DNA of 64,000 nt from the NCBI GenBank assembly GCA_965222075.1, contig OZ244937.1:3083670-3147669 (forward strand). The letters are read 5' to 3'. The DNA is from Candidatus Latescibacterota bacterium. Lineage in GTDB: Bacteria; Latescibacterota; UBA2968; GCA-2709665. Under the pieces are notes generated by a model, which searched no databases, was not told where the DNA came from, and saw only the letters and a program-made list of their open reading frames with translations. The first letter of the stretch is position 1. Each line of letters starts with the position of its first letter. Below, one piece after another: positions 24,061-53,900 of this stretch. Position numbers and translations under genes: made by a program.

Positions 24061-24171
24061 ATGGGGTCAACACCCAGGCGCACAGACGCGCCAGGGCGCC
24101 CGATAGAGACCCCGAAAGCCGCGAAAGGCCTACGAATACGACGCCCTCTGCACGCAAAGGCCAAAAGACGA

Positions 24172-26637
24172 CAGATGTCCGAAACCGCTGAAAAGCCCAA
24201 AACCGTCCGCCTCAGCCTCCCCATCTCCGGCATGTCCTGCGCCGCATGCGCCTCCCGCATCGAAAAGGGCCTGCAGGAGGTCCCCGGCGTGGCCGAGGCA
24301 GTCGTCAACTTCGGCGTGGAGCAGGCCACAGTCGCCTACGATCCGAAGCGGGTCGGCGTCGAACAGCTCGCCGAAAAGATCGGCGTCCTCGGCTACGATG
24401 TCCGGGGGGATGAGGTCACCCTCTCGGTGAAAGGCATGTCCTGCGCCGCATGCGTCTCCCGTGTGGAATATGCCCTAAGAGCGATCCCCGGCGTCATCAA
24501 GGCGAATGTTAACTTTGCCACCCACCAGGCAACCGTCCGCTACCTCAACATCGACGTGGACGCCCTGAAGCAGTCCGTGGCCGACGCCGGCTATGAGGCA
24601 TCGATGGTTGAGGAAGAGCAGGTATCGGAAGATCGGGAACGGGCCGACCGCCGGGCCGAATACCGGGCCGTTCGCCTCCGCTTCGTCGTGGGCGGCGTCC
24701 TCTCTGCCCTCATCATGGGTGTCGGCATGGTCCATACCCTCCTGGGCGTTGACCTCCCCACGCGGGAGATCCACCTCCTCCTCTTCCTGCTTGCAACCCC
24801 CGTCCAGTTCTGGTGCGGATGGCGGTTCCTGAAAGGCTTCCAGACCGCGCTTTGGCATGCCACGGCCGACATGAACAGCCTCATCGCCGTGGGCACCCTC
24901 GCCGCCTACGGCTACAGCACAGCCCTCACCTTTGCGCCCCGCGCCGTTGCCGAAGTCGGCCAGGCCCTGCACGTCTACTTCGACACCTCGGCCATGATAA
25001 TCACCCTCATTCTCCTTGGCCGGATGCTGGAGGCCAGGGCTAAGGGGCGCACCTCCGACGCCATCCGCAAACTGATGGACCTCCGCCCCCAGACCGCCCG
25101 CCTCATCCGGGATGACCAGACCCTTGTGGTCCCCGTTGAAGAAGTCGCCGTGGGAGACCTCCTCCGCGTCCGCCCGGGAGAAAAAATTCCCGTGGACGGC
25201 GCCCTCTACCAGGGCCGTTCCACAGTGGACGAATCGATGGTCACCGGCGAGAGCATCCCCGTGAAAAAAGGCCCCAACAGCCAGGTCACCGGCGGCACCC
25301 TTAACAAAACCGGAACCTTCACCTTTCGGGCCACCCAGGTCGGGTCGGAAACCGTCCTGGCCCGCATCGTCCAGATGGTCCGGCAGGCCCAGGGGTCCCG
25401 TGCCCCCATCCAGCGCCTCGCCGACCGGGTTGCGGGCATCTTCGTGCCCATCGTCTTCGGCATCGCCCTCCTCACCTTCCTTCTCTGGTACACCCTCGGC
25501 CCGCAGCCCCCGCTTGCTGCGGGCCTCCTCAACGCCGTCGCCGTCCTCATCATCGCCTGCCCCTGCGCAATGGGCCTGGCCACCCCCACCGCCATCATGG
25601 TCGGCACCGGCCGGGGCGCCGAATTCGGCGTCCTCATTAAAGGGGGCGACGTCCTGGAAACCGCCTGCCGGCTCGACACGGTCGTCTTAGACAAAACCGG
25701 CACCCTCACCACCGGCGCGCCCGCCGTCACCGACCTCATCCCCGCCGACGGCTTCAGCGAAAAGGACCTGCTTGTGCTGGCCGCCTCGGCCGAACAGGCC
25801 TCGGAGCACCCCCTCGGTGAGGCCATCCTCAAAGCGGCGGGCGAACAAAACCTCTCCCTGCGGGAGGCGCAGGCATTCGAAGCCTTCCCCGGAGAGGGCA
25901 TCGCCGCAGAAATCGCAGGGGTCACCCTACTCCTGGGCAACCGGCGGCTGATGGAAAATCAGGAAGTTCTTCTGGACGGATGGGCAGGACAGGCAAAGCG
26001 GCTTGAAAGAGAAGGAAAAACCACCGTATTCATCGCAGCCGACGGCCGGCCGGCGGGGCTTATCGGCATCGCCGACACCCTCAAGCCGGGGGCCGCAGAC
26101 GCAGTGGCCGACCTCCACGGCCTGGGCCTGAAAGTCGCCCTGGTCACCGGCGACAACGCCCGAACCGCAGAGGCGGTCGCCCGGATCGTCGGCATCGACC
26201 GGGTGCTGTCCGAAGTCATGCCGGAAGGGAAAGCCGACCGGATCGCGGAGCTTCAGGCCGGGCGAAAAGGGGTCGGCATGGTAGGCGATGGCATCAACGA
26301 CGCCCCCGCCTTAGCCCGGGCCGACGTCGGCATCGCCATCGGCACCGGCGCAGACATCGCCAAAGAAAGCGCAGACATCACCCTCATCTCCGGAGATCTG
26401 AGCGGCATCGGCGCGGCGGTGCGGCTCTCTAAGAAGACCATGCGAGTCATTCGCCAGAACCTCTTCTGGGCATTTGCCTACAACACCCTCCTCATCCCCA
26501 TCGCCGCTGTGGGCCTTCTCAACCCCCTTGGCGGCCCCATGCTCGCAGCGGCGGCCATGGCCTTCAGCTCCGTCTCCGTCCTCTCCAACTCCCTCCGGCT
26601 GCGGCGGTTCGATCCAACTCAGCGCCGGTTCGCATAA
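24172..26637 (+). CDS. copA: Copper-translocating P1B-type ATPase with two N-terminal HMA domains
   Basis: Two GMSCAAC HMA motifs, CPC ([12 protein letters not shown]), DKTGTLT, and the GDGINDAP hinge. Start chosen at MSETAEK; the upstream basic extension of the ORF is rejected. Confidence 0.9.
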
Positions 26638-27740
26638 TTCAAAATCCCCTTCACAATCCGTTCGGCGCTCCGCTGCCGGTTCTTGTGAAACCGCAGCCTG
26701 TAGGCCTCGCCCCTGTCGTGCATATTGTGGACCTCAACCAAGATCTCGGCATACGCCCGGTTGTTCCGGAGCACCCCCAAGTTGCGCCCCATGATCTGTG
26801 CGGGGAGATCGGGATGGTGCAGGGCCTTCTGCATCACCTGCGCGAACTTTCGGGAACGTTTATCGACCTTCCCCCTCCGGTTCAAATAGATCGCCAGCGG
26901 TCCCTTGGGCCGCCCCGGGCTGTTGTCTGCATGCAGCGAAACAAAAAGGCTCTTCCCCTTCCGGGCGCCCTTGAAATGCCGGTTGGCAATCCTGACCCGT
27001 TGTAAGAGATTGTTCCCGCCGGGACGGACGGAGCCCGAACGCCTCTGGTTCCTCTTCGCGTCGTTGTAAACCTCGTTCTGCTCGTGCACGAAGGTCACGC
27101 TCGCCCGGAAGTTGTCGCGTATGAGGTGGTTGGGGCTGATCACCGTCAGCTCCACCTCCGCGCCCTTCAGCCGCAGAAGTTCGTATACCCGCAGCGCAAT
27201 ATCGTAGACATACTCGTCCTCAACCACGTAGACCGAACGCTCCACCCCGTCCTTATTCGATACAATCGCCCCCGGATCGATGCCCCCATGCCCGGGATCA
27301 ACCACCACCTTCCAGCCCTTCAGCGGCAGCCGCCTGCCCCGGTTTTGGGCCAGCCTGGCACGGATCTCTGCGTCGAACGCCTGCAATAGCGCACGGGCGT
27401 TCTGGTAATCCTTGATCGGTCGAAACCGGGAAGGCTCGATATACTTCCGGCTCTGCTGTGCAGCCACCCTCGGTTTATAAAAATAATAAGGACCGTTCTC
27501 GGCCTTTATCTCCTTGAGCCTGGGCCCCAAACGCAGCACCTGTCCCGGATAGACCCGGTCGCTCCGGAGCCGGTTGAGCCGCTTGATCTCCTTTACGCTC
27601 ACCTGGAACAGGCGGGCAATCGACCAGAGGGAATCCCCCTTCCGGACCTCGTACGTCAGAGAAAGCCCAAGCGGCTCCCCCAGGGTAAACAGGACCAGAA
27701 AAAGCCCGACACAGACCTGGAAAATGCGGTGTAAGGTCAT
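26619..27740 (-). CDS. N-acetylmuramoyl-L-alanine amidase (Amidase_3) with LysM domain
   Basis: LysM ([29 protein letters not shown]...GQVLRL) followed by [13 protein letters not shown] amidase_3 motif. Start at [18 protein letters not shown] (signal/TM). Confidence 0.85.
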
Positions 27741-28130
27741 AGATTTAAAAACTGAAGGAGGATAAATTTTGGGGGGATTTGGCCTTGTGGTTGACCACAG
27801 CCGCGGAACCCCGGGTACAAACGGTGCAGCACCCGAACGCATGATGCCTCTGAGTTCGCAGTCGTGGCCAATCGTCTTCAGGCGGCACCGAAGGGGCACG
27901 GTGCAAAGCCGGAAAAGACCCTTGAACATGCCAAAACATAGGGACTTTGGGGGAAAAAGGCAAGAGAAAGCGGCCAGACCGTATCCTGAACCGGTTGGTC
28001 CTTTTCACCGCTCAAGTTGGTGTTTTCCACCAACTCTCTCATTTAAACGAGCTTGAACGAGCCCAATTTTCTTCTACATAAGTCTTATAAGAACAATTTC
28101 TTATATAAATATCTCCTGTTCATCAAAAAC

Positions 28131-28148
28131 CCGGCACGCCCCTTGCAG
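28131..28148 (+). promoter_or_regulatory. sigma54 (-24/-12) promoter upstream of pspA: cCGGCACGccccTTGCAg
   Basis: GG (28133-34) and GC (28145-46) are spaced exactly 10 nt apart, matching TGGCACG-N4-TTGCA consensus in 11 of 12 conserved positions. Lies 58 nt upstream of pspA ATG. AT-rich inverted repeat TTATAAGAA-caat-TTCTTATA at ~28085-28105 is a candidate UAS/IHF region. Confidence 0.65.
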
Positions 28149-28205
28149 AGAAGACGGCTGGAAGCTGCCGTTTCACGTTTCACAAAAAAGAGAGGAGCCA
28201 CACCG

Positions 28206-28883
28206 ATGGCCAAAGGAATCTTTTCAAGAATGGCGGACATCATCAAAGCCAACATCAACGACCTCCTGAATCGGGCGGAAGACCCGGAAAAGATGATCCG
28301 CCAGATGATCCTCGAAATGGAGGAGGCCGTCAACAAGGCGACCGCGTCCGTCGGCACCGCCGTGGCCAACGAGAAGCGGCTGGAGCGCCAGTGCCTCGAG
28401 AAAAAGGACCAGATCAAGGCCTGGCAGAAAAAGGCCGAACTCGCCGTCCAGGACGGAGAAGACGACCTGGCCCGGCGGGCGCTGGAACGGAAAGCGGCCC
28501 TGGAAGAGGCCGCCAAAGACTTGAGCGCCGCCCTCGACGAAAGCCAGCGGACCTCCAAACAGCTCAAACAGCAGCTCATGCAGCTCAAGGCCAAACTGGA
28601 CGAAGCCCGCACCCGCCAGGGCGCCCTCATCGCCCGGCGCAAAGCCGCAGAAGCCCGCAAGCAGATCGCCAAAGGCCTCTCCGGCGTGGGTGACGATGCC
28701 TTCTCCAGCTTCGAGCGGTTCCGCCAGCGGGTTGAAACCGAAGAGGCCGAAGCCGAAGCCCACCAGGAAATCGCCGGTTCCGAGCCTTCGCTGGAAGACG
28801 CCTTCACCAAACTCGAACGGAAGAGCACGGTGGAAGAGGAACTTGAAGTCCTCAAGAAAAAACTGGGCCGGACCGATGCGTGA
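28206..28883 (+). CDS. pspA: Phage shock protein A (PspA/IM30 family)
   Basis: MAKGIFSRMADIIKANINDLLNRAEDPEKMIRQMILEMEEAV is the canonical PspA N-terminus. Coiled-coil throughout. AGAGGAG RBS. Confidence 0.9.
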   Translation: MAKGIFSRMADIIKANINDLLNRAEDPEKMIRQMILEMEEAVNKATASVGTAVANEKRLERQCLEKKDQIKAWQKKAELAVQDGEDDLARRALERKAALEEAAKDLSAALDESQRTSKQLKQQLMQLKAKLDEARTRQGALIARRKAAEARKQIAKGLSGVGDDAFSSFERFRQRVETEEAEAEAHQEIAGSEPSLEDAFTKLERKSTVEEELEVLKKKLGRTDA

Positions 28884-29093
28884 CGTCCAGAAAATCTTAG
28901 ACGAAATCGCCTGCTCAAACTCGCCCGGGAAAAGGGCGGCAGCCTCACCGTCCTCGAAGCCGCCACCGATGCCCGCATGACCGTAGAAAAGGCCGAGGAG
29001 ATCCTCCGAGAACTGGCCGCCCGGGGCCACGCCGAGGTCCGCGTCTCCGAGTCGGGCCTCATCGTCTACTACTTCCCGGTGCACGAACTCTGA
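28876..29093 (+). pseudogene. Small wHTH-like ORF translationally coupled to pspA, apparently disrupted by a 1-nt frameshift (or sequencing error) near 28908-28912
   Basis: ATG 28876 overlaps the pspA stop (ATGcgTGA) and opens MRDVQKILDEIA in frame +1. Clearly protein-like sequence LLKLAREKGGSLTVLEAATDARMTVEKAEEILRELAARGHAEVRVSESGLIVYYFPVHEL* continues in frame 0 to 29093. One extra C in the gcc run would join them into a ~72-aa helix-turn-helix/beta-hairpin protein. Confidence 0.35.
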
Positions 29094-29112
29094 AACCTCA
29101 GGGAGGGCTGTC

Positions 29113-29322
29113 ATGATCGAAGTCGGATTTGGAGTTGCGCTGATCATCCTCGCTGTTGCGATCCTCAAATACGTGGAGCGACGCTACAAAGGCGCCATCC
29201 CCAGCGATGCCGAAGAACGGCTCATGGCCCGAATGGCCGAACTCGAACGACGCCTCACAGACATCCAGGACGTCATGATCACCATCGACGAAAAAATGAG
29301 CAGGAGCAATCCGGAGGAATGA
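29113..29322 (+). CDS. PspB-like single-pass membrane coiled-coil protein (paralog 1)
   Basis: 69 aa. N-terminal TM helix (IEVGFGVALIILAVAILKYV) then coiled coil SDAEERLMARMAELERRLTDIQDVMITIDEKM. Same architecture and heptad pattern as E. coli PspB. GGGAGGG RBS. Confidence 0.5.
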   Translation: MIEVGFGVALIILAVAILKYVERRYKGAIPSDAEERLMARMAELERRLTDIQDVMITIDEKMSRSNPEE

Positions 29323-29327
29323 TCTTC

Positions 29328-29447
29328 AGTGACGCCGAAAAACGGCTCATTGGCCTGGATAGACGAACTCGAACGCATGCTCACAGACATCCAGGACGTC
29401 ATGATCACCATCGACAATAAAATGAGCAGGCCCAAAGTGGAAATTTA
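29328..29447 (+). pseudogene. Degenerate duplicate of the 3' half of the PspB-like gene (no TM region, 1-nt indel)
   Basis: ~85% nucleotide identity to 29203-29305, including an identical 36-nt run ctcacagacatccaggacgtcatgatcaccatcgac. Frameshifted relative to its parent. Encodes ...IDELERMLTDIQDVMITIDNKMSRPKVEI*. Confidence 0.45.
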
Positions 29448-29481
29448 AACCGTTCACCCAAACCCACAGGGAGGAAAATAA

Positions 29482-29739
29482 ATGATAGGCTGGATCCTGG
29501 AACTGATGATCGGCTTCTCTCTGATCATCGTCGTAAGCGGAACAGTAAGCTACGTTCACCTGAGGCTGAAACGCGCCTCGAAGGGAGTGAATCCGGACCG
29601 GGCCAAGCGGATGGAAGCCCGGCTGGACACCCTGGAACAGAGGTTGACCGATATTCAGGACATTATCATCGCCATCGACGAGAAGCTGAACCGGGCAGAC
29701 TACCGACCGCCATCTCCGGTCCAAACAGACAAAGGATAA
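29482..29739 (+). CDS. PspB-like single-pass membrane coiled-coil protein (paralog 2)
   Basis: 85 aa. TM helix (IGWILELMIGFSLIIVVSG) then AKRMEARLDTLEQRLTDIQDIIIAIDEKLNRADY. GGGAGG RBS. Confidence 0.5.
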   Translation: MIGWILELMIGFSLIIVVSGTVSYVHLRLKRASKGVNPDRAKRMEARLDTLEQRLTDIQDIIIAIDEKLNRADYRPPSPVQTDKG

Positions 29740-29743
29740 CGCC

Positions 29744-29923
29744 ATGCTCTCCAAAATCCTCGGCATCATCTTGATCGTCATCGGGGGTTCCCTGGCCCTC
29801 GGTGTCCTGTTTCAACTGATCGGCTCAATTGTCGGACTGCTCTGGGCCATGATCAAACTGGCCATACCGCTGGTCCTCCTCTACGTCGGCTACCGGCTGC
29901 TCACACGGGAACCGGATTATTAA
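29744..29923 (+). CDS. Small membrane protein, two TM helices (59 aa), below ORF-table cutoff
   Basis: ATG 29744 to TAA 29921-23: MLSKILGIILIVIGGSLALGVLFQLIGSIVGLLWAMIKLAIPLVLLYVGYRLLTREPDY. Tightly packed between PspB-like paralog 2 and the ECF sigma gene. Confidence 0.4.
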   Translation: MLSKILGIILIVIGGSLALGVLFQLIGSIVGLLWAMIKLAIPLVLLYVGYRLLTREPDY

Positions 29924-29935
29924 AGGGGTTGAAAA

Positions 29936-30517
29936 ATGCCACAAACAGAAGACCGCGTCCTGATCCGTCGGGTGCTGGCGGGAGATCACTCAGCTTTTGA
30001 CACCCTCTACAAGACCCACCATCCACAGGTCTACGCCATGATCGCCCGTCGCGTCTCCGACAGAGACCTCACAGAAGACCTGGTCCAGACCACCTTCCTG
30101 CGCGCCTTCCGTTCCCTTAACACCTACCGGGGCGACGCGGCCTTCTCCACCTGGCTGACTCAGATCGCCTTAAACGTCTTCAAATCTCACCTCCGGGCGC
30201 AGCGGGTGCGGCAGACCTGGGTACACGAAACCGAAGACCCCGAACGGGCGACCGGAATCGACCGGGAGCCGGCCCCCTGTGAAAATCCCGAACAGGTGAT
30301 GCAGCAGAAAGAACGCCGAAAACTCGTCATACAGGGCATCCGGTCTCTGCCTGCGCGTTACCGCAAAGCGGTCTGGCTGCGCTACATCAAGGACTGGTCC
30401 TACGAAGAAATCACGCAGGCGCTCCAGGTGCCGATGGGCACGGTCAAAACCCGGCTCTGCCGGGGGCGCCGGCAGTTGAAAGGGGAATTTCGCAAACTGG
30501 GCCTCCAGGCAGTATAG
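29936..30517 (+). CDS. RNA polymerase sigma-70 ECF-subfamily sigma factor
   Basis: Region 2 (DLVQTTFLRAFRSLNTYRGDAAFSTWLTQIALN) and region 4 (SYEEITQALQVPMGTVKTRLCRGRRQL) are diagnostic of ECF sigma factors. AAAGGGG RBS. Confidence 0.9.
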   Translation: MPQTEDRVLIRRVLAGDHSAFDTLYKTHHPQVYAMIARRVSDRDLTEDLVQTTFLRAFRSLNTYRGDAAFSTWLTQIALNVFKSHLRAQRVRQTWVHETEDPERATGIDREPAPCENPEQVMQQKERRKLVIQGIRSLPARYRKAVWLRYIKDWSYEEITQALQVPMGTVKTRLCRGRRQLKGEFRKLGLQAV

Positions 30518-30586
30518 CGGTAGATAGACCTTGACAATCGGGCGGTATTATACATATCATGTCGGCCCGGACGAAAGGAGGCAGCC

Positions 30587-31192
30587 ATGGAAGCCTGGTG
30601 GACAAACCTGACCACGTTGAACCAGATCCTCTACCTCGTGGCGATCTTTTTCAGCACGCTCTTCGCCTGGCAGTTTGCGGCGGCCCTGCTCGGCCTGGGA
30701 GGGGGCGCCGATGTGGGCGGGGGCGACGCGACCGCAGGGGATGCCGGACCGGAGATCGACGACATGGTCCAGGACGCAAGCGTGGCCGCCTTCAAACTCC
30801 TGTCGGTCCGTTCCATCATCGCATTTGGCATGCTCTTCGGCTGGGCCGGCGCGCTCTACCTCCAGTCGGGCACCGAGGTGGAAAGCGCGCTCCTCTACAG
30901 CCTGGTCTGGGGGGCCGCCGCGATGGTCGCCGTGGCCTATTTTTACCACGGCATTCAGCAGCTCACCGAGACCGGCAACCCCAAGCTGGAGACCTGCGTC
31001 GGCGCGTCGGGTGAGGTCTACATCGACATCCCCGAAAACGGGATCGGGCAGATCCGCGTGGTGGAAAGCGGCGCGGTCTCCTACGTATCCGCCCGGGGGA
31101 AAAACGGCGCCCCGATCCCGAACAAGACTCCGGTATGGGTACGGCGGGTAATCGATGGGACCACGCTCGAGGTCGAACAAATCGAACCCTGA
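30587..31192 (+). CDS. NfeD-like membrane protein (YuaF-type flotillin partner; N-terminal TM helices plus C-terminal OB-fold)
   Basis: 201 aa. TM helices at N-terminus and middle. C-terminal beta-rich segment GEVYIDIPENGIGQIRVVESGAVSYVSARGKNG...VWVRRVIDGTTLEVEQI is typical of the NfeD OB domain. Sits directly upstream of flotillin, as in yuaF-floT operons. Confidence 0.6.
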   Translation: MEAWWTNLTTLNQILYLVAIFFSTLFAWQFAAALLGLGGGADVGGGDATAGDAGPEIDDMVQDASVAAFKLLSVRSIIAFGMLFGWAGALYLQSGTEVESALLYSLVWGAAAMVAVAYFYHGIQQLTETGNPKLETCVGASGEVYIDIPENGIGQIRVVESGAVSYVSARGKNGAPIPNKTPVWVRRVIDGTTLEVEQIEP

Positions 31193-31228
31193 ACCCGAAA
31201 GCCAACCCACCCCTCAAAGGAGGCTCAT

Positions 31229-32773
31229 ATGCCAAATCCGATGATCCTGACGATGATTTTAGTCGCGGTCGTGTTTCTGCTGTTCCTGACCTTCATCTCC
31301 AGGTACAAGCGCTGCCCGTCCAACAATATCCTGGTGATCTACGGCAAAACAGGGAGTGGTGCGGCCAAGTGCGTGCACGGAGGCGCGGCCTTCGTCCTGC
31401 CCCTGTTGCAGGACTACAAATACCTGGACTTGGAGCCGTTCGTCGTGCCCATCGACTTAGACAATGCGCTCTCCCAGGAAAACATCCGGGTGTCCGTGCC
31501 CACAACGGTCACTGCCGCCGTCTCGAACCAGCAGGGCATCATGCAAAACGCCGCGGTCCGCCTCCTGGGCCTGTCGCACGACCAGATCCAGAGCCAGGCG
31601 CAGGACATCATCCTGGGCCAGATGCGGGCCGTGATTGCAACAATGGAGATCGAAGAGATCAACCAGGACCGGCAGGCCTTTATGGGCAAGGTCAACGAGG
31701 CGGTCTCCACCGAGATGGAAAAAATCGGTCTGGCCGTGATCAACGTGAACATCAAAGACATCGAGGACGAAAGCGGATATATCAAAGCCCTCGGCCAGAA
31801 AGCGGCGGCCGAAGCAATCAACCAGGCGGCCATCGACGTGGCCGAGCAGGAGAAAATGGGCAAGGTGGGGGTGGCCGAGCGGGAAAGGGACCAGCGCACG
31901 GATGTGGCCGCTGCGAACGCGGCCGCTGAAATCGGTGAATCCCAGGCCGCCCGGGACCGGCGTCAGAGGGTCGCCGCCCTCGAATCCGAAGCCGAAATCG
32001 GTGAATCCCAGGCCGCCCGGGACCGGCGCCAGAGTGTCTCCTCTCTGGATGCGGAAGCGGTCCAGGCCGAGGCCGAGGCCGAATCCAAGAAGGCCGGCTA
32101 CATGGCCCAGCAGAGGGTGGCCGAGGAGGTTGCCCGGCAAAAAGGGCAGGAGGCCGCAAAGGCCGCAGACGGCGCCATCCGGGTCGCGCAGGAACGGGCG
32201 GAGAAAGAGGCCGAGGAAGCCCGGGCGCTGCGCGAAGAAGCGCGTCTGAAAGCCGAAATCGTCGTACACGCCGAAGCGGAAAAACAGAAGCTGGTGGTAC
32301 AGTCCGAGGCCGAGAAAACGCAGAAAACCCTGGTGGCAGAAGGGGAGGCCGCCGCCATCCTGGCCCAGAAGCAAGCCGAAGCCCAGGGCACGCAGGCCAT
32401 CCTGGATGCGAAGGCCGAAGGTTACAGAGAGCTGGTGGCCGCATGCGGCGGAAAAGATCAGGCTGCCGCAGCCTTCCTCATCATCGAGCGGCTCACCGAG
32501 GTGGCGGGCATCCAGGCCGAGGCCATTCAGAACCTGCCTTTGGAGAAGGTGATGGTCTGGGACGGCGGCAATGAACAGGGCGGCCTGTCCAACCTGGGCC
32601 AGCGCCTGATGGGCACCATCCCCCCGATGCACGATCTGGCCCGGCTGGCCGGCCTGGAGCTCCCTGAATTCCTCGGCAGAATGACGGGAAGCAGCGAGCA
32701 GCAGACGCACACGTCCGACAGCGGCGGTGGCGGTACAGCGGAGGCGGGGGGCCAGACCGGGCCGTCCACTTAA
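31229..32773 (+). CDS. floT: Flotillin (SPFH/band-7 family, FloT/YuaG-like) with internal 66-bp tandem duplication
   Basis: 514 aa. N-terminal membrane hairpin, SPFH domain, and a long EA-rich coiled coil. Near-identical 22-aa repeat AEIGESQAARDRRQ(R/S)V at nt 31925-32056. Confidence 0.85.
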   Translation: MPNPMILTMILVAVVFLLFLTFISRYKRCPSNNILVIYGKTGSGAAKCVHGGAAFVLPLLQDYKYLDLEPFVVPIDLDNALSQENIRVSVPTTVTAAVSNQQGIMQNAAVRLLGLSHDQIQSQAQDIILGQMRAVIATMEIEEINQDRQAFMGKVNEAVSTEMEKIGLAVINVNIKDIEDESGYIKALGQKAAAEAINQAAIDVAEQEKMGKVGVAERERDQRTDVAAANAAAEIGESQAARDRRQRVAALESEAEIGESQAARDRRQSVSSLDAEAVQAEAEAESKKAGYMAQQRVAEEVARQKGQEAAKAADGAIRVAQERAEKEAEEARALREEARLKAEIVVHAEAEKQKLVVQSEAEKTQKTLVAEGEAAAILAQKQAEAQGTQAILDAKAEGYRELVAACGGKDQAAAAFLIIERLTEVAGIQAEAIQNLPLEKVMVWDGGNEQGGLSNLGQRLMGTIPPMHDLARLAGLELPEFLGRMTGSSEQQTHTSDSGGGGTAEAGGQTGPST

Positions 32774-32778
32774 AAGGG

Positions 32779-34146
32779 GTGATTCCTTTGGAAAAAACCC
32801 GGGTCCAGGACGCCGACCTCTGCTTCAAAACCGGCCTGCGTGCCCTCAAACAGGATAAAAGGGCGGAGGCCCGGCAGGCCTTCGAGGGCGCTGTCGAGCT
32901 GCACCCGGACCATCTCAACGCCCGGTTCCAACTCGCCCTCCTCTACGCCCGGGGCGGCGCGCCCGGTTCTGCGGGCCGGCAGAAAGCCGTAGCGGCCCTG
33001 CAGCACATCCTCGGCGTTGCCGGCCGGGGCGTGCCCTGTGCGAACCTGGACCGGGTCTGCTTCCTGTTGGGCAGCTTTCTGGACGACACACCCGAAAACC
33101 GGGGGAAGGCCATCGCAATCTACCGTCGGGGGCTCGACGCAGACCCCCTCTTTGCCCCGGGGCACAACAACCTGGGTGTCCTGCTGATGCAATCGGGCCA
33201 GACCATCCCGGCCCTGGGCGCCTTTAAAATCGCCCTCCACTTGGAGCCCGATTACACCCTCCCCTACCAGAACCTGGCCCGCCTCCTCTTCGACCACATG
33301 AGCCCTGCCCAGATGGAGCGGGAATACACCTCCATCATCGAAGAATTTGGCGTTCAGGCACCCCTGGTCCTCTCCAGGCTCTCCCTCGAACTCATCGATC
33401 TGGGCCGGGCGCAGGTCTATGAGAGCCTCTACACCCGGGGCCACCAGATCAAGAACCTCATGGGCGTGGTCGGCAGCCGGATGCGCCGGCTGATCCGAGA
33501 ATCGTCGCCCGATGAGAAAGGCCTCGACGACCTCAAAGACATTGCCCGCGAACAGGAACGGGTCTACGACCAGTGGGTCGCCTACCTCCGCTCTATGAAA
33601 CAGCACCCCATGAACCCCACGCTGGTGGAGATCCCCCAGCTGGTCCGGAAAGCAAGCGAAAAGGTCGTCACCCGGAAAGGAAGAAAGACCCTCCGCTTCG
33701 CATCAGAAGCCCATGTTCCCCAGGTCAAGGCAGACCCCGGCATGCTCCGCGAGGCTGTCACCAACCTCATCCTCAACGCCCTCGAAGCCGTCGGAGAGGA
33801 TGGAAAGGTCACCCTTCAGACCGGCTACGATCCCAAACGCGCCTCGGTCTACGTCGAAGTGGAGGACAACGGCCCGGGTATCTCCAAACCCCTCCAGGTC
33901 CGGATCTTCGACCCCGGATACTCCACCAAAGAAAAGGGGAACGGCTACGGCCTCAGCATCTGCGCCCGGATCGTCTCGGCCCACCGCGGTAACCTCCGGG
34001 TAATGAGCCGGCCCGGCGCCGGCGCCGTCTTTCGGATTGACCTGCCGGTCGACTTCGAACTCGCCTCCGAAGAGGAGAGCATCGGCCTCCAGGGCGCCCC
34101 GCTGCAAACCGCGCGTCACCCCCTCGCCGAGGAGTTCATCAAGTGA
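32779..34146 (+). CDS. Cytoplasmic sensor histidine kinase with N-terminal TPR repeats (no TM segments)
   Basis: TPR repeats in N-terminal half. H-box (RGHQIKNLMGVV). HATPase_c G-boxes (VEDNGPGI, GYGLSICARIV). Annotated GTG start at 32779; TTG at 32788 has better RBS spacing. 4-nt overlap with the downstream response regulator. Confidence 0.75.
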   Translation: MIPLEKTRVQDADLCFKTGLRALKQDKRAEARQAFEGAVELHPDHLNARFQLALLYARGGAPGSAGRQKAVAALQHILGVAGRGVPCANLDRVCFLLGSFLDDTPENRGKAIAIYRRGLDADPLFAPGHNNLGVLLMQSGQTIPALGAFKIALHLEPDYTLPYQNLARLLFDHMSPAQMEREYTSIIEEFGVQAPLVLSRLSLELIDLGRAQVYESLYTRGHQIKNLMGVVGSRMRRLIRESSPDEKGLDDLKDIAREQERVYDQWVAYLRSMKQHPMNPTLVEIPQLVRKASEKVVTRKGRKTLRFASEAHVPQVKADPGMLREAVTNLILNALEAVGEDGKVTLQTGYDPKRASVYVEVEDNGPGISKPLQVRIFDPGYSTKEKGNGYGLSICARIVSAHRGNLRVMSRPGAGAVFRIDLPVDFELASEEESIGLQGAPLQTARHPLAEEFIK

Positions 34147-35549
34147 AGGCGCACATCCTCATCGCCGACGACCAGCCCGAAATCCTGGACATGCTCACCC
34201 GCAGCCTCCAGGCCGACGGCCGGACCGTTCAGGCCTTTCCCTCCAGCGCCAACGCGCTTGGCTATCTGCAAAAACACGCCCCGGCAGTCGACATGGCCAT
34301 CCTCGACCTCGACTTTGGCCCCGGCGAACCCGACGGCCTGGAAACCCTCCGGCAGATGCGGCAAGAAGCGCCCGACCTGCCCGTAATCATCCTTACCGGC
34401 AAAGGCACCGTGGAAACCGCCGTAGCTGCCCTGCGCCTGGGCGCGGCCGACTTCATTGAAAAAGACTTCTACATCGAAGACAGGCTTGAACTCAGCCTGG
34501 AAAAACTCGACCGGATGCTCTCTGTCCTCCGGGAAAATGCCCGGCTGCGGGCCGAAGTGGACGACCTCGACCGGGAAAACCGGTTCTACCGGGCCGAATT
34601 CGGAAAGCGCTACCAGGTCATCAGCGTCAGTCCCCAGATGCAGCAGATCATGCAGCAGGCCGAGCGCATCGCCTCCATCCCCCGCCCCGTCCTCATCCTG
34701 GGCGAACGGGGCACCGGCAAAGAACTGGTGGCCGCCGCGGTCCACTACGGGGGCGTGCGCAAAGACCGCCCCTTTGTCAAAGTCAACTGCGCGGCCCTCT
34801 CCGCCACCCTCTTGGAAAGCGAACTCTTCGGGCACGAAAAAGGGGCCTTCACCGGTGCGGTCGAGGCCCGCCCGGGCCGGTTCGAGGCCGCCAACGGGGG
34901 CACCCTCTTCTTAGACGAAATCGCCAGCACCACCCCCGAGTTTCAGCAGAACATCCTGCGCGCCATCGAATACCAGGAAGTACAGCGGGTCGGCGCTGCC
35001 GCGCCGGTACCGGTGGACGTGCGCATCATCGCCGCTACGAATGCCGACCTCGAACGGGAAATGGCCGAAGGCCGCTTCCGGGAGGACCTCTACGACCGCC
35101 TCCGGTTCGAAATCATCCGCATCCCCCCCCTCCGGCAGCGCCGGGAAGACATCCAGCCCTTAGCAGAGTTTTTCGCCGAACAGATCCTCCAGGAAGTCCC
35201 CGGCCTTGTACGCCGTCCCTTTTCAAACGCCGCCACAAAACGGCTGCTCGCTTACGGCTGGCCGGGCAACGTGCGCGACCTCAAATTCGCCGTGGAGCGG
35301 GCCGCCTGCATGGTCGCCGGCCCCGCCATCGAACCCGACGACCTGCCTCCCGAAATCGCCTCGGGCGCATTCGAACCCTCCGGTGAGGGATTTGAAGCGC
35401 AGACGAGGGCCTTTGAACTGGGCTTGCTCCGCCAGGCCCTGCACGCCACCGCCTGGAACCAGCGGCAGGCCGCCGCCCAATTGAAACTCAGCTACGACCA
35501 GTTCCGCCACCGCTACCGGAAATACGACCTGGACCGGGAAAAGCCGTAG
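34143..35549 (+). CDS. sigma54-dependent response regulator (NtrC family: REC + AAA+ bEBP + HTH)
   Basis: REC domain (phospho-acceptor D in AILDLDFG). Walker [15 protein letters not shown] motif ([15 protein letters not shown]), and C-terminal Fis-type HTH. Confidence 0.9.
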
Positions 35550-35578
35550 CGACACCCAAACGGCCACCACCTTCCACA

Positions 35579-35610
35579 GGCCCGAGCATTCGGGCCATTT
35601 TATTGTTTTT
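35579..35610 (+). terminator. Rho-independent terminator after the sigma54 response-regulator gene
   Basis: GGCCCGA-gcat-TCGGGCC hairpin followed by ATTTTATTGTTTTT. Confidence 0.75.
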
Positions 35611-35646
35611 CGGTAAACACGGGGGGGCGACCCGAACGCGGCGCAT

Positions 35647-35686
35647 CCTGCCTGCCTGCGCCGGGCTGTGCTCGGCAGGCAGGCAG
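35647..35686. repeat. Perfect 12-13-bp inverted repeat CCTGCCTGCCTGC / GCAGGCAGGCAGG with 14-nt loop (stable hairpin) in intergenic region
   Basis: Seen directly in sequence. Located between the terminator and the epimerase promoter region. Confidence 0.5.
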
Positions 35687-35835
35687 AACCGATTCGATCA
35701 ACTCCGATAAGGTCTTGTCGTCCGCTTTGGTCTCGACTGCGGCAAAACGCGCCATCTGCGCACCAGAACCTGACCAACCCATCCGGTTTTATTCGCATTG
35801 GAGATGAAGAACAGGCGAAACAACAAGGAGGCCCC

Positions 35836-36588
35836 ATGAACATCGTCGTATTCGGCGCAGCCGGCTGGACGGGACGGGCCGTGCTGGCCAACCTGGCCGG
35901 CAGGCACCATGTCCGCGCATTCGACCGCGGCCCCGAGGCCTGGGAATCGTGGAAAGATATCGAGGGAGCGTGGGAAGGCGAAATCGTCCACGGCGACATT
36001 GCCGACTTCAACGCCGTCCACAACGCCATCGAAGGAATGGACGCCGTCATTCATACGGCCGTCTACTACAGCGGCGATATCGAAGATAAAAACCCCTTCC
36101 TCATCAACCTCAAAGGCCTGTGGAACGTCCTGGAATCCGCCCACCGGCACGGCCTCAACCGGGCCGTTCACATCGGCTCCTGCCAGACCGTGCACCCCAA
36201 AGGCATCTTCTTTACCGCCGACGTCAGACGCCCGGACGGCGGACTCTACGCCGTCTGCAAGCGCCTGCAGGAGGAGATGTGCCGCCAATTCCACGATGCC
36301 TTCGACATGCGCATCGTCGTCCTCCGCCCCCAGTACATCGTAGACAGCCGCCTGGGAATCGACAAGTACAGGAAAAAAATGGGGTCGGAGGAAATGCCGC
36401 TCCGTGAAGGCTGGGTCTGCCGGCACGACTTAGCCGAAGCCTGCCGGCTCGCGGTCGAGTCTGAAACCGTCGACTTCGACATCTTTCACATCGTCGGCAC
36501 GCCCGAGTCCGACAGAACCTGCAACGCCGCCCACTCGCGGGAGGCGCTGGGGCTGACATACAGAGGCAACCTGGAACAGTATCGATAG
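35836..36588 (+). CDS. NAD-dependent epimerase/dehydratase family protein (atypical short-chain Rossmann)
   Basis: N-terminal VFGAAGWTGRAV GxxGxxG. SDR-like extended family. AAGGAGG RBS. Start at MNIVVFGA; upstream ORF extension rejected. Confidence 0.75.
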   Translation: MNIVVFGAAGWTGRAVLANLAGRHHVRAFDRGPEAWESWKDIEGAWEGEIVHGDIADFNAVHNAIEGMDAVIHTAVYYSGDIEDKNPFLINLKGLWNVLESAHRHGLNRAVHIGSCQTVHPKGIFFTADVRRPDGGLYAVCKRLQEEMCRQFHDAFDMRIVVLRPQYIVDSRLGIDKYRKKMGSEEMPLREGWVCRHDLAEACRLAVESETVDFDIFHIVGTPESDRTCNAAHSREALGLTYRGNLEQYR

Positions 36589-50962: not shown

Positions 50963-53900
50963 GTGTCAACCACACCCAGCGCACCAGACGCACTCATTGT
51001 TTCCGGCGACGACCGTGTTCAGAAAATTCTGGCGCAGGAAGATGCCGTTGTTGTGCCCGCCTATGCGTTTTTCCTGGATGGTTTCGTGAAAGATACGTTT
51101 ACCGAATATGCCAATCCCTCGATCTACCGTCCGCCATCGGTTTGCAGCGCCCGCCTGGTGAGTACCCTGCGGGATATGTACCAGTTTAAAGAGACCGGCA
51201 CATACTATTTCGGCTTTACGATGTATGCCGACGCCGGATATGACGAGCCGGTTGAGGTCTGGGTCGGCCACGAACAGGTTGCGCTGGCCCGGCATCCCGA
51301 CCCGGATAATCGGGTGCATCTTTTTGTGGCGCCCAAACCAATTGGTTTTCAGGGCGGTGAGCTCAAACGCCTGATCACCGGGAAAACAGACGGTCCGTGT
51401 CGGATTGAAAATGTGGTTCTTCTCAAGAAACGACCCCGGCCGACGCCGCCCGAATTGACCGTTCTTTCCCCCCATGTGGACGTCCGCCACGATAACGGCA
51501 AAGCCTGTGCCTATATTACGTGGATGACCAGCCGGCCCGCGTCGGGACGGTTGCGCTGGGGCAGCGGCAAGAGGCTGTCCAGGACCGTTGAGATGGCCGG
51601 TCCGCTGGCCAACCACGAAGTGGTTCTGGAAGGTCTGGACCTGAACAAGTCGTACCGGTTTGAGCTGGATCTGACCGGGCGTGTGGAGGGGCTCAAAGCT
51701 GCATATGCCGGAGTGTTCAAGACGGATCTTACAGCGCCTTCAAGCCGGGTGAAAAAGGGGCGCGTTCCGATTCGGCTGCGTCGACCCGGCAATGGGCTGT
51801 GGCCGGTTTCTGTGGGTGTGCCCTTTCCAAAAGGTGCGCTGGGCAGCGAGGATGAGATTCGGCTGGTGGATAAGCGTGGGGCAGAGGTGGGACTTCAGGC
51901 GCGCAGTCTTGCGCGGTGGGAGGATGGCTCGGTGCGCTGGGCGCTGCTGGATTTTCAGGCGGACGGAAAGCATGAGTATACCGCTGAATACGGCAGTGAG
52001 GTTTCCCGTTCTGTGCCTGGTGATAGGCTGGAGGTGTCGGAGTCGGAGACGTCGGTTGTGGTGACGACCGGGCCGCTGCGCGTGGAATTTCCGAAGGGCC
52101 GGGTGGTATTTCCGGGTGTGGTGTGGGTGAAACGGACAGACGGGTCGTATCGCAAGCTATCGGGACCCTCTGCCGGGGTGCGTCTGACCGGGGCCGATGG
52201 ATCGGTGTATGGATCGGGCAAGCCGGAGGCGGTGGTGGTGGAAGAGGCCGGTTCTGAGCGGGTGTGCGTGCGTGTGGAGGCGGTCCACCGGCTGCGCAGC
52301 CGGTCGTTGTTCCACTCGATTTTGCGCGTGCATCTATTCCGGGGCAGCGGGGCGATCCGGGTGCTGCACACGTTTGAGAATGACCGTGTGGAGGAGATGT
52401 TTACCTGCATCCGGGAATTGAGCCTGCGGTCGGACTTCAAGGTGGGAGGCGCTTTGCAGGGCCGGGTGGGCCGGCGCCGGGTGGAGGGACTCAAGGCTGG
52501 GGGGGTGGTACTGCACCAGGGACTGGACAACCGGTATGTTGTGAGACGGGGAGGGGCGGAGATCGCGAGAGGGCGCCGTGCGGAGGGCAGTGTGGCGTTG
52601 CGTGGGGATAGGGGCGGTGTGAGCCTGGTGGTGCGGGATTTCTGGCAGAATTATCCAAAGGGTGTGGCGGTGGATGAGAAGGGGATAACGGTGGGGATCT
52701 GTCCGGCGCTGGATGAGGCGGATTATCCGCGTGGAGGGGAACTGGAGGATCGGTTGTATTATTATTTGCTGGATGGGGTGTATAAGTTCAAGGCGGGGGT
52801 TTCCCGTACGCACGAGATGTGGTTTCACATTCGGTCAAAAGGCGATGCGCCAGAGGGTTTTGCGGCGTCGGTGCAGCGTCCGCCGCTGTATGGTATGTCG
52901 CTTGCAGCGTTCAATAAAAGCCGGGCGCTTACCCGGCTGCCCGAAAAAGAAAAATCTCCGTTTCCGCCGTATGAAACGTGGGTTGAGACCGTACGCGGCG
53001 TTTATGCCGAAGATCGAGAGAAATCCCGCGCTTATGGGATGCTCAATTACGGGGATTGGTTCGGAGAGCGCGTTTATAACTGGGGGAATATGGAGTATGA
53101 TACGCCCTGGTGTTTTTTGCAGGAGTATCTCAGGGGGGGGCATTCGGATTTTTATACCTGGGCCGAGGAGGCTGCGCGACATCTTGTGGATGTGGATACC
53201 GTCCACCATACCGACGAGCCCGACAATTTGGGGTCGCAGTATATTCACTCCGTCGGCCACGTGGGCAATTATTATCCCGATGGGTACCGGGAGCGCGCCA
53301 TTTTCGCCGGCCGCTGGAGTGTTTCCCATACCTGGGTGGAAGGTCTTTTTCTTTACCATCTTCTCACGGGCGATGCCAGGGCTCTGGAAAGCGCAATGCA
53401 GACGAGCAATTTGCTGGTTGGGAATATGCTCAACGACTATGATTTCACGAACTGTCGCAATTGCGGGTGGCACCTGATTCATCTGGCCGCCGCGTACAAA
53501 GCCACCGGCCGACGCGTGTATCTGAATGCCGCCCGTACGATCGTGGATCGCGTGCTGGAGCGGCAAAAGCCCTCCGGCGGATGGGAACGGCTTATGGTTC
53601 CCGGACACTGTTTCTGTTATCCGCTCCGGCATATGGGCAATGCCGGGTTTATGGTTGGCGTGTTGATGGCGGGGTTGCGTCGGTTCTACGAAGCGACGGG
53701 TGAAAAACGCGTTCGAGATGCGATTGTCCATGCCGCTACGTTTTGCATCGATGATATGTGGGTGCCCGAAAACCGGGCGTTCCGGTACACGTCGTGTCCC
53801 AAATCTTCGGTGGGGCGGTCCGCCGATATGGCCATTCTCAAAGGAATTGCTTTTGCCTACGATGTTTCCGGGAATGAACGGCTGAGGGAGGTTCTTTTCG

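Follow-up and report, generated by a model that had tools for sequence, protein, structure and literature searches.

The window, a stretch of 64,000 nucleotides (nt) of contig OZ244937.1 from a Candidatus Latescibacterota bacterium, contains an array of genes that opens with pspA, of the phage shock protein (Psp) family, and closes with a histidine kinase and a sigma-54 response regulator. Ten units, all on the + strand, span positions 28206-35549, and are separated by gaps of -8, 19, 159, 4, 12, 69, 36, 5 and -4 nt: the 159-nt gap is the stretch that holds a decayed gene copy, and all other gaps lie between -8 and 69 nt. Unless stated otherwise, the features given below are on this strand. 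An earlier note, made from the letters of the window, described a co-directional and packed array at this place; the listing of open reading frames and the profile searches both agree with this description, and the genes that were called as pspA, an extracytoplasmic function (ECF) sigma factor, a flotillin-type protein, a kinase and a regulator all match their own Pfam families.

An exact-sequence look-up of the window kinase returns no record. Homology searches yield 330 homologues of this kinase at E <= 1e-10, found in metagenome-assembled genomes of Latescibacterota, and a kinase scan that keeps one genome per species gives 80 loci, labeled mostly Latescibacterota, with some Gemmatimonadota, Planctomycetota and unclassified bacterium; the non-redundant set of Latescibacterota loci numbers 74. 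Synteny was read from tblastn alignments of all window proteins onto the loci, together with tables of called genes. In the 74 non-redundant loci a constant core appears in the same order: pspA, a gene that we call X, one to five miniproteins made of a transmembrane (TM) segment plus a helix, a TPR kinase, and an activator with receiver (REC), AAA+ and helix-turn-helix (HTH) domains. The order is kept in essentially all loci with sufficient flanking DNA, down to 44% kinase identity.

Three clades can be told apart by what accompanies this core. The distant clade, with kinases 44-48% identical to that of the window, has the core only. The middle clade (58-64%) has the core, a 2-TM miniprotein and the ECF sigma factor, and its kinase starts 2 nt past the ECF stop. 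The close clade (67-93%), to which the window belongs, is the only one with an nfeD-flotillin pair, placed after the ECF gene and before the kinase. The gains are nested: the ECF gene is present only at kinase identities >= 58%, and nfeD-flotillin only at >= 67%. On this comparison, the ECF sigma factor and the 2-TM miniprotein are an addition in one lineage, and nfeD-flotillin a later one still, in the clade of the window. The whole array is syntenic in relatives, as would be expected from the earlier note, with the restriction that flotillin and NfeD are found in the close clade only.

The kinase (32779..34146, 455 amino acids) combines TPR sequence with a HATPase_c domain (E 8e-23), and no TM segment is predicted in it, as a cytoplasmic TPR histidine kinase, the description already given to it, requires. 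H222, within the motif GHQ(I/L)KNL, is invariant among 15 diverse homologues, which also conserve the N, G1 and G2 boxes: the protein has both the His box and the catalytic ATP-binding domain of a histidine kinase. The HisKA model of Pfam does not match, but alignments to the models of NtrB and CreC begin at about residue 210-220. In the window and in two relatives, L001 and L045, the kinase is ~90 residues shorter at its N-terminus than in most other loci (452-455 versus ~542 amino acids), and the sequence lost is TPR sequence. On a metagenome contig with an identical nfeD (L087:2300-3666), the kinase is called as two products of 70 and 371 amino acids, which suggests a frameshift or a strain variant.

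The activator gene (34143..35549, 468 amino acids) begins before the kinase gene ends, its start overlapping the kinase stop by 4 nt. Its product matches Response_reg (PF00072), Sigma54_activat (PF00158) and HTH_8 (PF02954), and carries D55, a Walker A motif at 187 and GAFTGA at 234; it is an NtrC-type bacterial enhancer-binding protein, and the earlier call of an NtrC-type sigma-54 response regulator stands. The only enhancer-binding protein of the locus is thus a REC-containing regulator of NtrC type, paired with a TM-less TPR kinase, and this pair is linked to pspA in every related locus.

The DNA upstream of pspA holds the sites on which such a regulator would act. The sigma-54 promoter that the earlier note placed there, GGCACGccccTTGC (28133..28146), has the GG and GC of its -24/-12 elements 12 nt apart and precedes the ATG of pspA by 60 nt. 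A -24/-12 element is found before pspA in 77/77 loci, where 0.022 such elements per 300 nt would be expected from background, and GGCACGccccTTGC is the sole sigma-54 match within the array. Two other sigma-54-like matches in the 64-kb window, at 51498 on the - strand and at 52892 on the + strand, fall inside an open reading frame of 1020 amino acids; the total of three matches in the whole window is at chance level.

Further upstream lie two candidate upstream activator sites (UAS): a distal one, TGGTCcttttCACCG (27996..28010), which matches the pattern TGGYN-N5-NRCCA, and a proximal one, the perfect dyad TGGTGttttcCACCA (28018..28032), 115 base pairs (bp) upstream of the -24 GG. With the strict pattern, a tandem of two such dyads 20-23 bp apart is found in 54 of the 74 non-redundant loci, versus 0 in shuffles, and in 53 of these 54 the spacing is 21 or 22 bp; when the first base may be T or C, the tandem is found in 68 of 72 loci. 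Across loci, the distance from the start of the proximal dyad to the -24 GG is 84-115 bp. The tandem pair, some 100-135 bp upstream of the -24 element, is the likely site of the activator. Close-clade and middle-clade loci have half-sites TGGTG/CACCA, those of the distant clade have TGGCG/C, and it is at the same split that the HTH of the regulator becomes GSQK..LTYDRFRHLLRK; this co-variation is consistent with cognate recognition. A different operator had been proposed in the earlier note, the AT-rich dyad TTATAAGAA-N4-TTCTTATA (28085..28105). The window does have it, within the AT-rich stretch that separates UAS and promoter, but it is the tandem dyad that is conserved in related loci and not this one, and the proposal is not supported.

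The first gene of the array, pspA (28206..28883, 225 amino acids), matches the PspA_IM30 profile (PF04012) at E 2e-46 over residues 4-219, a full-length match that places its product in the PspA/IM30 family. The protein is 40% identical to E. coli PspA over its full length, and scores 186 bits with the equivalog model TIGR02977, under the cut-off of 243.

The second gene of the core, X, is reduced in the window to a remnant (28876..29093), delimited by DNA alignment to L045 and L001. The earlier note had taken it for a small winged-helix open reading frame coupled to pspA. The ATG at 28876 does overlap the TGA of pspA, but its frame closes at 34 codons, and the winged-helix part lies in another frame, whose first start codon is not before 28977. 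By alignment, the supposed gene is evidently a frameshifted deletion remnant of X: a deletion of 250 nt, out of frame, removed both TM helices, another of 39 nt lies near the 3' end, and what is left still encodes only residues 138-196 of the L001 orthologue. Elsewhere X has 168 amino acids in L045, the closest relative, 213 in L001, and 156-260 in 74 of the 76 copies extracted from other loci; the two short extracts, of 34 and 40 amino acids, look like extraction artefacts. Between 28881 and 29093 the remnant shares the frame of pspA, directly after its TGA-C stop, and read-through would add the domain to PspA. This part keeps 88% identity with the L001 protein across 59 amino acids, with no obvious extra decay. 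The shared frame could be a coincidence, the chance of which is 1 in 3.

In an AlphaFold2 (AF2) model of intact X, with a predicted local distance difference test (pLDDT) score of 70, an N-terminal helix is followed by a TM hairpin, a winged helix and a C-terminal helix; a search with this fold returns generic winged-helix matches alone, at E ~3e-3 or weaker. The winged helix of X is non-basic and membrane-tethered. Its extreme C-terminus is invariant within clades: an acidic [RK]PVDEL-COOH, replaced by RGVESA-COOH in the distant clade. The C-terminal module (TM segment, basic patch, winged helix and EK...K..E tail; L045:717-1223, L001:4830-5471, P0361-P0506) belongs to a large family without a Pfam model of its own. 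A profile search yields 1337 representative clusters at E <= 1e-3, mostly 2-TM proteins of ~150 amino acids, and some of the relatives are fused to TMEM43-like, RDD or adenylate-cyclase domains. A PspA domain is present in 0 of ten sampled distant relatives of X, and pspA is not adjacent in the two sampled distant relatives whose surroundings were inspected. Downstream of X, in one middle-clade genome (L003:6046-8583), two transposase genes, of ISL3 type and ISAZ013 type, lie inside the operon, between X and the miniproteins.

The miniproteins themselves form a family with a TM segment (residues 1-23 or 1-27) and the motif RLxxLExRLTDIQDVxIxIDEKL, and their genes lie downstream of pspA in all loci. 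The window has two of them, one of 69 amino acids (29113..29322), with a single N-terminal TM segment and the family motif, and one of 85 amino acids (29482..29739) with the same architecture and motif. Between the two is a decayed copy (29322..29448) that has no TM segment and a shifted register: as was noticed earlier, 29322-29435 repeats 29197-29309, here at 79-86% identity with a 1-nt shift, and L001 has an intact second copy at this place. The site of the decayed copy is occupied in the closest relative by a gene of 794 amino acids, between two miniprotein genes (L045:1457-3841). Two variants stand side by side in L001: a miniprotein of 195 amino acids with two TM-plus-helix units (L001:5996-6583), and one of 119 amino acids in which a TM2 domain (PF05154, E 6e-19) bears the same C-terminal helix motif (L001:6598-6957).

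The earlier note called these genes PspB-like, which is right about their architecture (an N-terminal TM segment, a short cytoplasmic helix, a position after pspA) and goes beyond what can be said of their sequence. The hhalign comparison of the family with E. coli PspB gives a probability of 9% over 18 columns; a scan of 27 members at E <= 10 does not place PF06667 within its 25 most-matched families, and this model matches one related variant of 195 amino acids at E = 1. Since these scans show no detectable homology, we reject the identification with PspB. Among the homologies proposed for the array, those of the histidine kinase, of the response regulator and, through its fold, of NfeD do hold. 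The next gene, the 2-TM miniprotein (29744..29923, 59 amino acids), is present as described and belongs to a conserved family; 4 of its 15 members match LiaF-TM, weakly (E 0.19).

The ECF sigma factor (29936..30517, 193 amino acids) has regions 2 and 4 only, matching Sigma70_r2 (PF04542) and r4_2 (PF08281), and scores 108.7 bits with TIGR02937, over the cut-off of 42.9. Its gene is absent from the distant clade, and no anti-sigma factor is recognized beside it. A similar arrangement exists in Pseudomonas syringae, where HrpL, the ECF sigma factor of the HrpR/HrpS-HrpL cascade, also lacks an adjacent anti-sigma factor and is encoded downstream of a sigma-54 promoter; its function, type III secretion, is a different one. 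Because the ECF gene lies downstream of the sigma-54 promoter, with no adjacent anti-sigma factor recognized, the amount of sigma factor would follow the enhancer-binding protein.

Between the ECF gene and nfeD, a sigma-70-like promoter, TTGACA-N18-TATCAT (30531..30560), matches 11 of 12 consensus positions and divides the array directly upstream of nfeD. The same element is found in L001, L045 and L051, and a conserved block occupies the equal position in other close-clade loci. The NfeD-family membrane protein that follows (30587..31192, 201 amino acids) has three TM helices plus a C-terminal beta-barrel. Its family matches PF01957 weakly, in 5 of 8 members, with the window protein sub-threshold at E 0.062, and a profile search of the sequences of the PDB is empty; homologues in other phyla are annotated as NfeD, and some of them carry PF01957. 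The fold is more explicit: the AF2 model (pLDDT 81) consists of three helices and a five-strand barrel, and its four top PDB matches, YuaF, YbbJ, 1510-C and MTH693, are all NfeD proteins (E 3e-5 to 8e-4), which settles the call in favor of the earlier note. In L001, a long-read chromosome, the nfeD orthologue is broken across two frames (L001:7870-8476), probably by an assembly indel.

The flotillin-type protein (31229..32773, 514 amino acids) is an SPFH protein with a TM anchor at residues 1-28, a Band_7 match (PF01145, E 3e-27) and a long coiled-coil tail; its SPFH domain is 24% identical to that of E. coli YqiK. An NfeD gene followed by an SPFH gene is also the order of yqiJK, of QmcA-YbbJ and of yuaF-floT, an operon under sigma-W control in Bacillus, and the NfeD barrel shares its fold with YuaF and YbbJ; the NfeD-like family shows no hhalign similarity to E. 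coli YqiJ. The score with the FloT equivalog (NF058507) is far under the cut-off, at 135 bits versus 700, for an alignment that is full-length (residues 8-485). In Phycisphaerae and Lentisphaerae, an nfeD-Band_7 pair stands alone amid unrelated genes. Because the module is present in the close clade only, exists as a stand-alone pair elsewhere and has a conserved promoter of its own, it is a late insertion, one that probably brought or kept this promoter.

The array ends at the intrinsic terminator that had been predicted there (35579..35612). A hairpin with a 7-bp GC stem (35579-35596), 30 nt past the stop codon of the regulator, is followed by a T-rich tail, and the fold has an energy of -17.4 kcal/mol (z = -2.7). 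A search of Rfam with positions 27000-36500 gives no match, and the defence models of PADLOC give a generic match to the activator and nothing more. On the other side of the array, interval 24061-27929 contains a copper-type P-type ATPase on the + strand and a LysM-amidase on the - strand, divergent from pspA; both keep their synteny with the operon in loci of the close and middle clades, and the distant clade lacks both.

Several known systems share parts of this organization. As in the pspF/pspABCDE system of E. coli, a sigma-54 promoter and an upstream activator site drive pspA and then small membrane proteins, and the activator has a PspF-like AAA+ domain with a Fis-type HTH. Contrary to E. 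coli, this activator has a REC domain and a partner kinase, its gene is at the 3' end of the operon rather than divergent as pspF is, and the membrane proteins downstream of pspA are not detectably PspB or PspC. Variants of PspF with ACT or PAS domains are known (PMC11237479), and the psp activator of Desulfovibrio is REC-less (PMC4641369). The liaIHGFSR operon of B. subtilis places a PspA-family effector under a two-component system of the same operon, with small membrane partners (PMC11237479), an arrangement that is probably shared here. The Lia system, however, has a membrane kinase, a REC-HTH regulator and a sigma-70-type promoter, in place of a soluble TPR kinase and a sigma-54 activator: the type of regulator differs, and the likeness of the 2-TM miniprotein to LiaF-TM is marginal.

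The earlier note also took pspA and yuaF-floT to be separate members of the sigma-W regulon in Bacillus. Such a separation of Psp and SPFH proteins overlooks the pspA-ydjGHI operon of B. subtilis (PMC8581546), in which pspA is linked to a Band_7/flotillin gene and an NfeD-type partner, and similar neighborhoods in Acidobacteriota and other phyla (PMC9239133, PMC11237479). In these papers the neighborhoods come with HTH regulators or with no regulator (PMC8581546, PMC9239133, PMC11237479); in the present case the cassette was inserted into a psp operon of sigma-54 two-component type that already existed, and it retained a promoter of its own. The claim of an undescribed architecture must consequently be narrowed. 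The association of PspA with flotillin and NfeD, with sigma-54, and with a two-component system has in each case been published, and it is the combination that we did not find described. In the literature we found no psp operon described with both a REC-containing activator and a soluble TPR kinase, and nothing on Psp or phage shock in Latescibacteria. What is apparently new, as we have not found it described, is the phosphorylation-controlled activator with its soluble TPR kinase, together with the partner families.

We conjecture, with somewhat better than even confidence, that the array is a Psp operon of Latescibacterota, probably autoregulated through its sigma-54 promoter by the two-component pair encoded at its own 3' end. 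In such an operon, the kinase would phosphorylate D55 of the regulator, which would then bind both TGGYN-N5-NRCCA sites and remodel the sigma-54 holoenzyme at the pspA promoter. The output would be more PspA, more of its partners and more ECF sigma factor, and read-through would also raise kinase and regulator, a positive feedback. The internal sigma-70-like promoter would give basal amounts of kinase, regulator, NfeD and flotillin. Since the kinase has no membrane segment, its input must, in this model, be a cytoplasmic protein contact: membrane status would reach the TPR domain through such contacts, and the likeliest partners would be X, by its co-conserved cytoplasmic parts, the miniproteins, by their invariant helix, or PspA. 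Flotillin and NfeD would be an added effector rather than a sensor. Flotillin had been suggested as an input of the kinase; the middle and distant clades keep kinase and regulator without flotillin or NfeD, and it is therefore not an obligate one. That the TPR domain senses PspA, as the earlier note suggested, is speculation.

A number of observations weigh against this conjecture. Every link in the model is comparative only. X has become a pseudogene in the window, where one miniprotein copy has decayed as well, so that the system may be partly eroded or rewired in this genome. The correlation between the HTH and the UAS is weak, because a single phylogenetic split underlies it. The basal supply of kinase and regulator from the internal promoter is proposed for the window and the close-clade loci, where this promoter was examined. 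Finally, PspA could directly inhibit the activator, as in E. coli, although the residue at the position of W56 of PspF is never W.

This last possibility leads to a second reading, with control as in E. coli: PspA would bind the AAA+ domain of the activator and inhibit it, the membrane partners would titrate PspA away, and REC and kinase would provide only a secondary input. The 40% identity between the two PspA proteins, and the membrane partners encoded after pspA, in the place that PspB and PspC have in E. coli, speak for it, as does the activator, whose AAA+ domain shares 44% identity with that of PspF and whose top NCBIfam match is PspF (TIGR02974). The score of this match is 344 bits, however, under the equivalog cut-off of 443, and against solved structures the activator is no closer to PspF than to NtrC1, ZraR or NifA. 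PspA binding requires W56 in PspF; the window has K at the corresponding position, and the family has K, R, S, Q or G. Because W is never found there, and because all loci have kept both the dedicated kinase and the canonical REC domain, PspF-type control is less likely to be the main switch, and we hold this reading to be improbable.

A third reading separates the array into two or three independent units that happen to be adjacent: a sigma-54 psp operon, from pspA to the ECF gene, under an activator encoded elsewhere, and a sigma-70-driven operon of nfeD, flotillin, kinase and regulator with other targets. The conserved promoter between the ECF gene and nfeD is what such a partition predicts, and nfeD-flotillin is a self-contained cassette in other phyla. 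Yet kinase and regulator follow pspA, X and the miniproteins in every clade, even where flotillin and the ECF gene are missing, and the 2 nt that separate the ECF stop from the kinase start in the middle clade leave the two units tightly joined there. Moreover, the sole sigma-54 promoter of the locus, with its tandem dyad, precedes pspA, and the sequence of the dyad co-varies with the HTH of the regulator. We consider it unlikely that the units are independent. As for the fused Psp-flotillin supermodule of the earlier note, whose TPR kinase would read the assembly of flotillin and/or PspA and whose operator would be the TTATAAGAA dyad, the co-directional and close packing in the window and the close clade is in its favor, but it is overstated and very improbable, given that nfeD-flotillin lies outside the conserved core, inserted late with its own promoter and absent from two clades that keep kinase and regulator, that the dyad is not conserved, and that the clade of the window has lost ~90 N-terminal TPR residues of the kinase.

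Within the conjectured two-component operon, X is a candidate relay between membrane and kinase. It is known that EEVD tails dock into TPR clamps, and that the winged helices of ESCRT-II nucleate ESCRT-III. By analogy, the acidic tail of X might dock in the TPR domain, and/or its winged helix might nucleate PspA polymers, either of which would link the membrane to the soluble kinase; we put this forward as a speculation with a small chance of being right. If true, the relay would be a new sensing principle for Psp systems. The loss of X in the window genome provides a natural mutant for comparison.

To our knowledge, work on Psp has been carried out almost wholly in Proteobacteria, where control is by PspF and sigma-54 with no phosphorylation, and in Firmicutes, where it is by the Lia two-component system and sigma-70. 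The operon presented here, found phylum-wide, would join both logics, with unrelated membrane partners standing in for PspB and PspC. Latescibacterota are uncultured, which is a practical limit to its study. The operon is a natural experiment in which a cytoplasmic kinase would read membrane damage, and its nested gains, first of an ECF sigma factor and then of a flotillin cassette, record the stepwise assembly of an envelope-stress locus.

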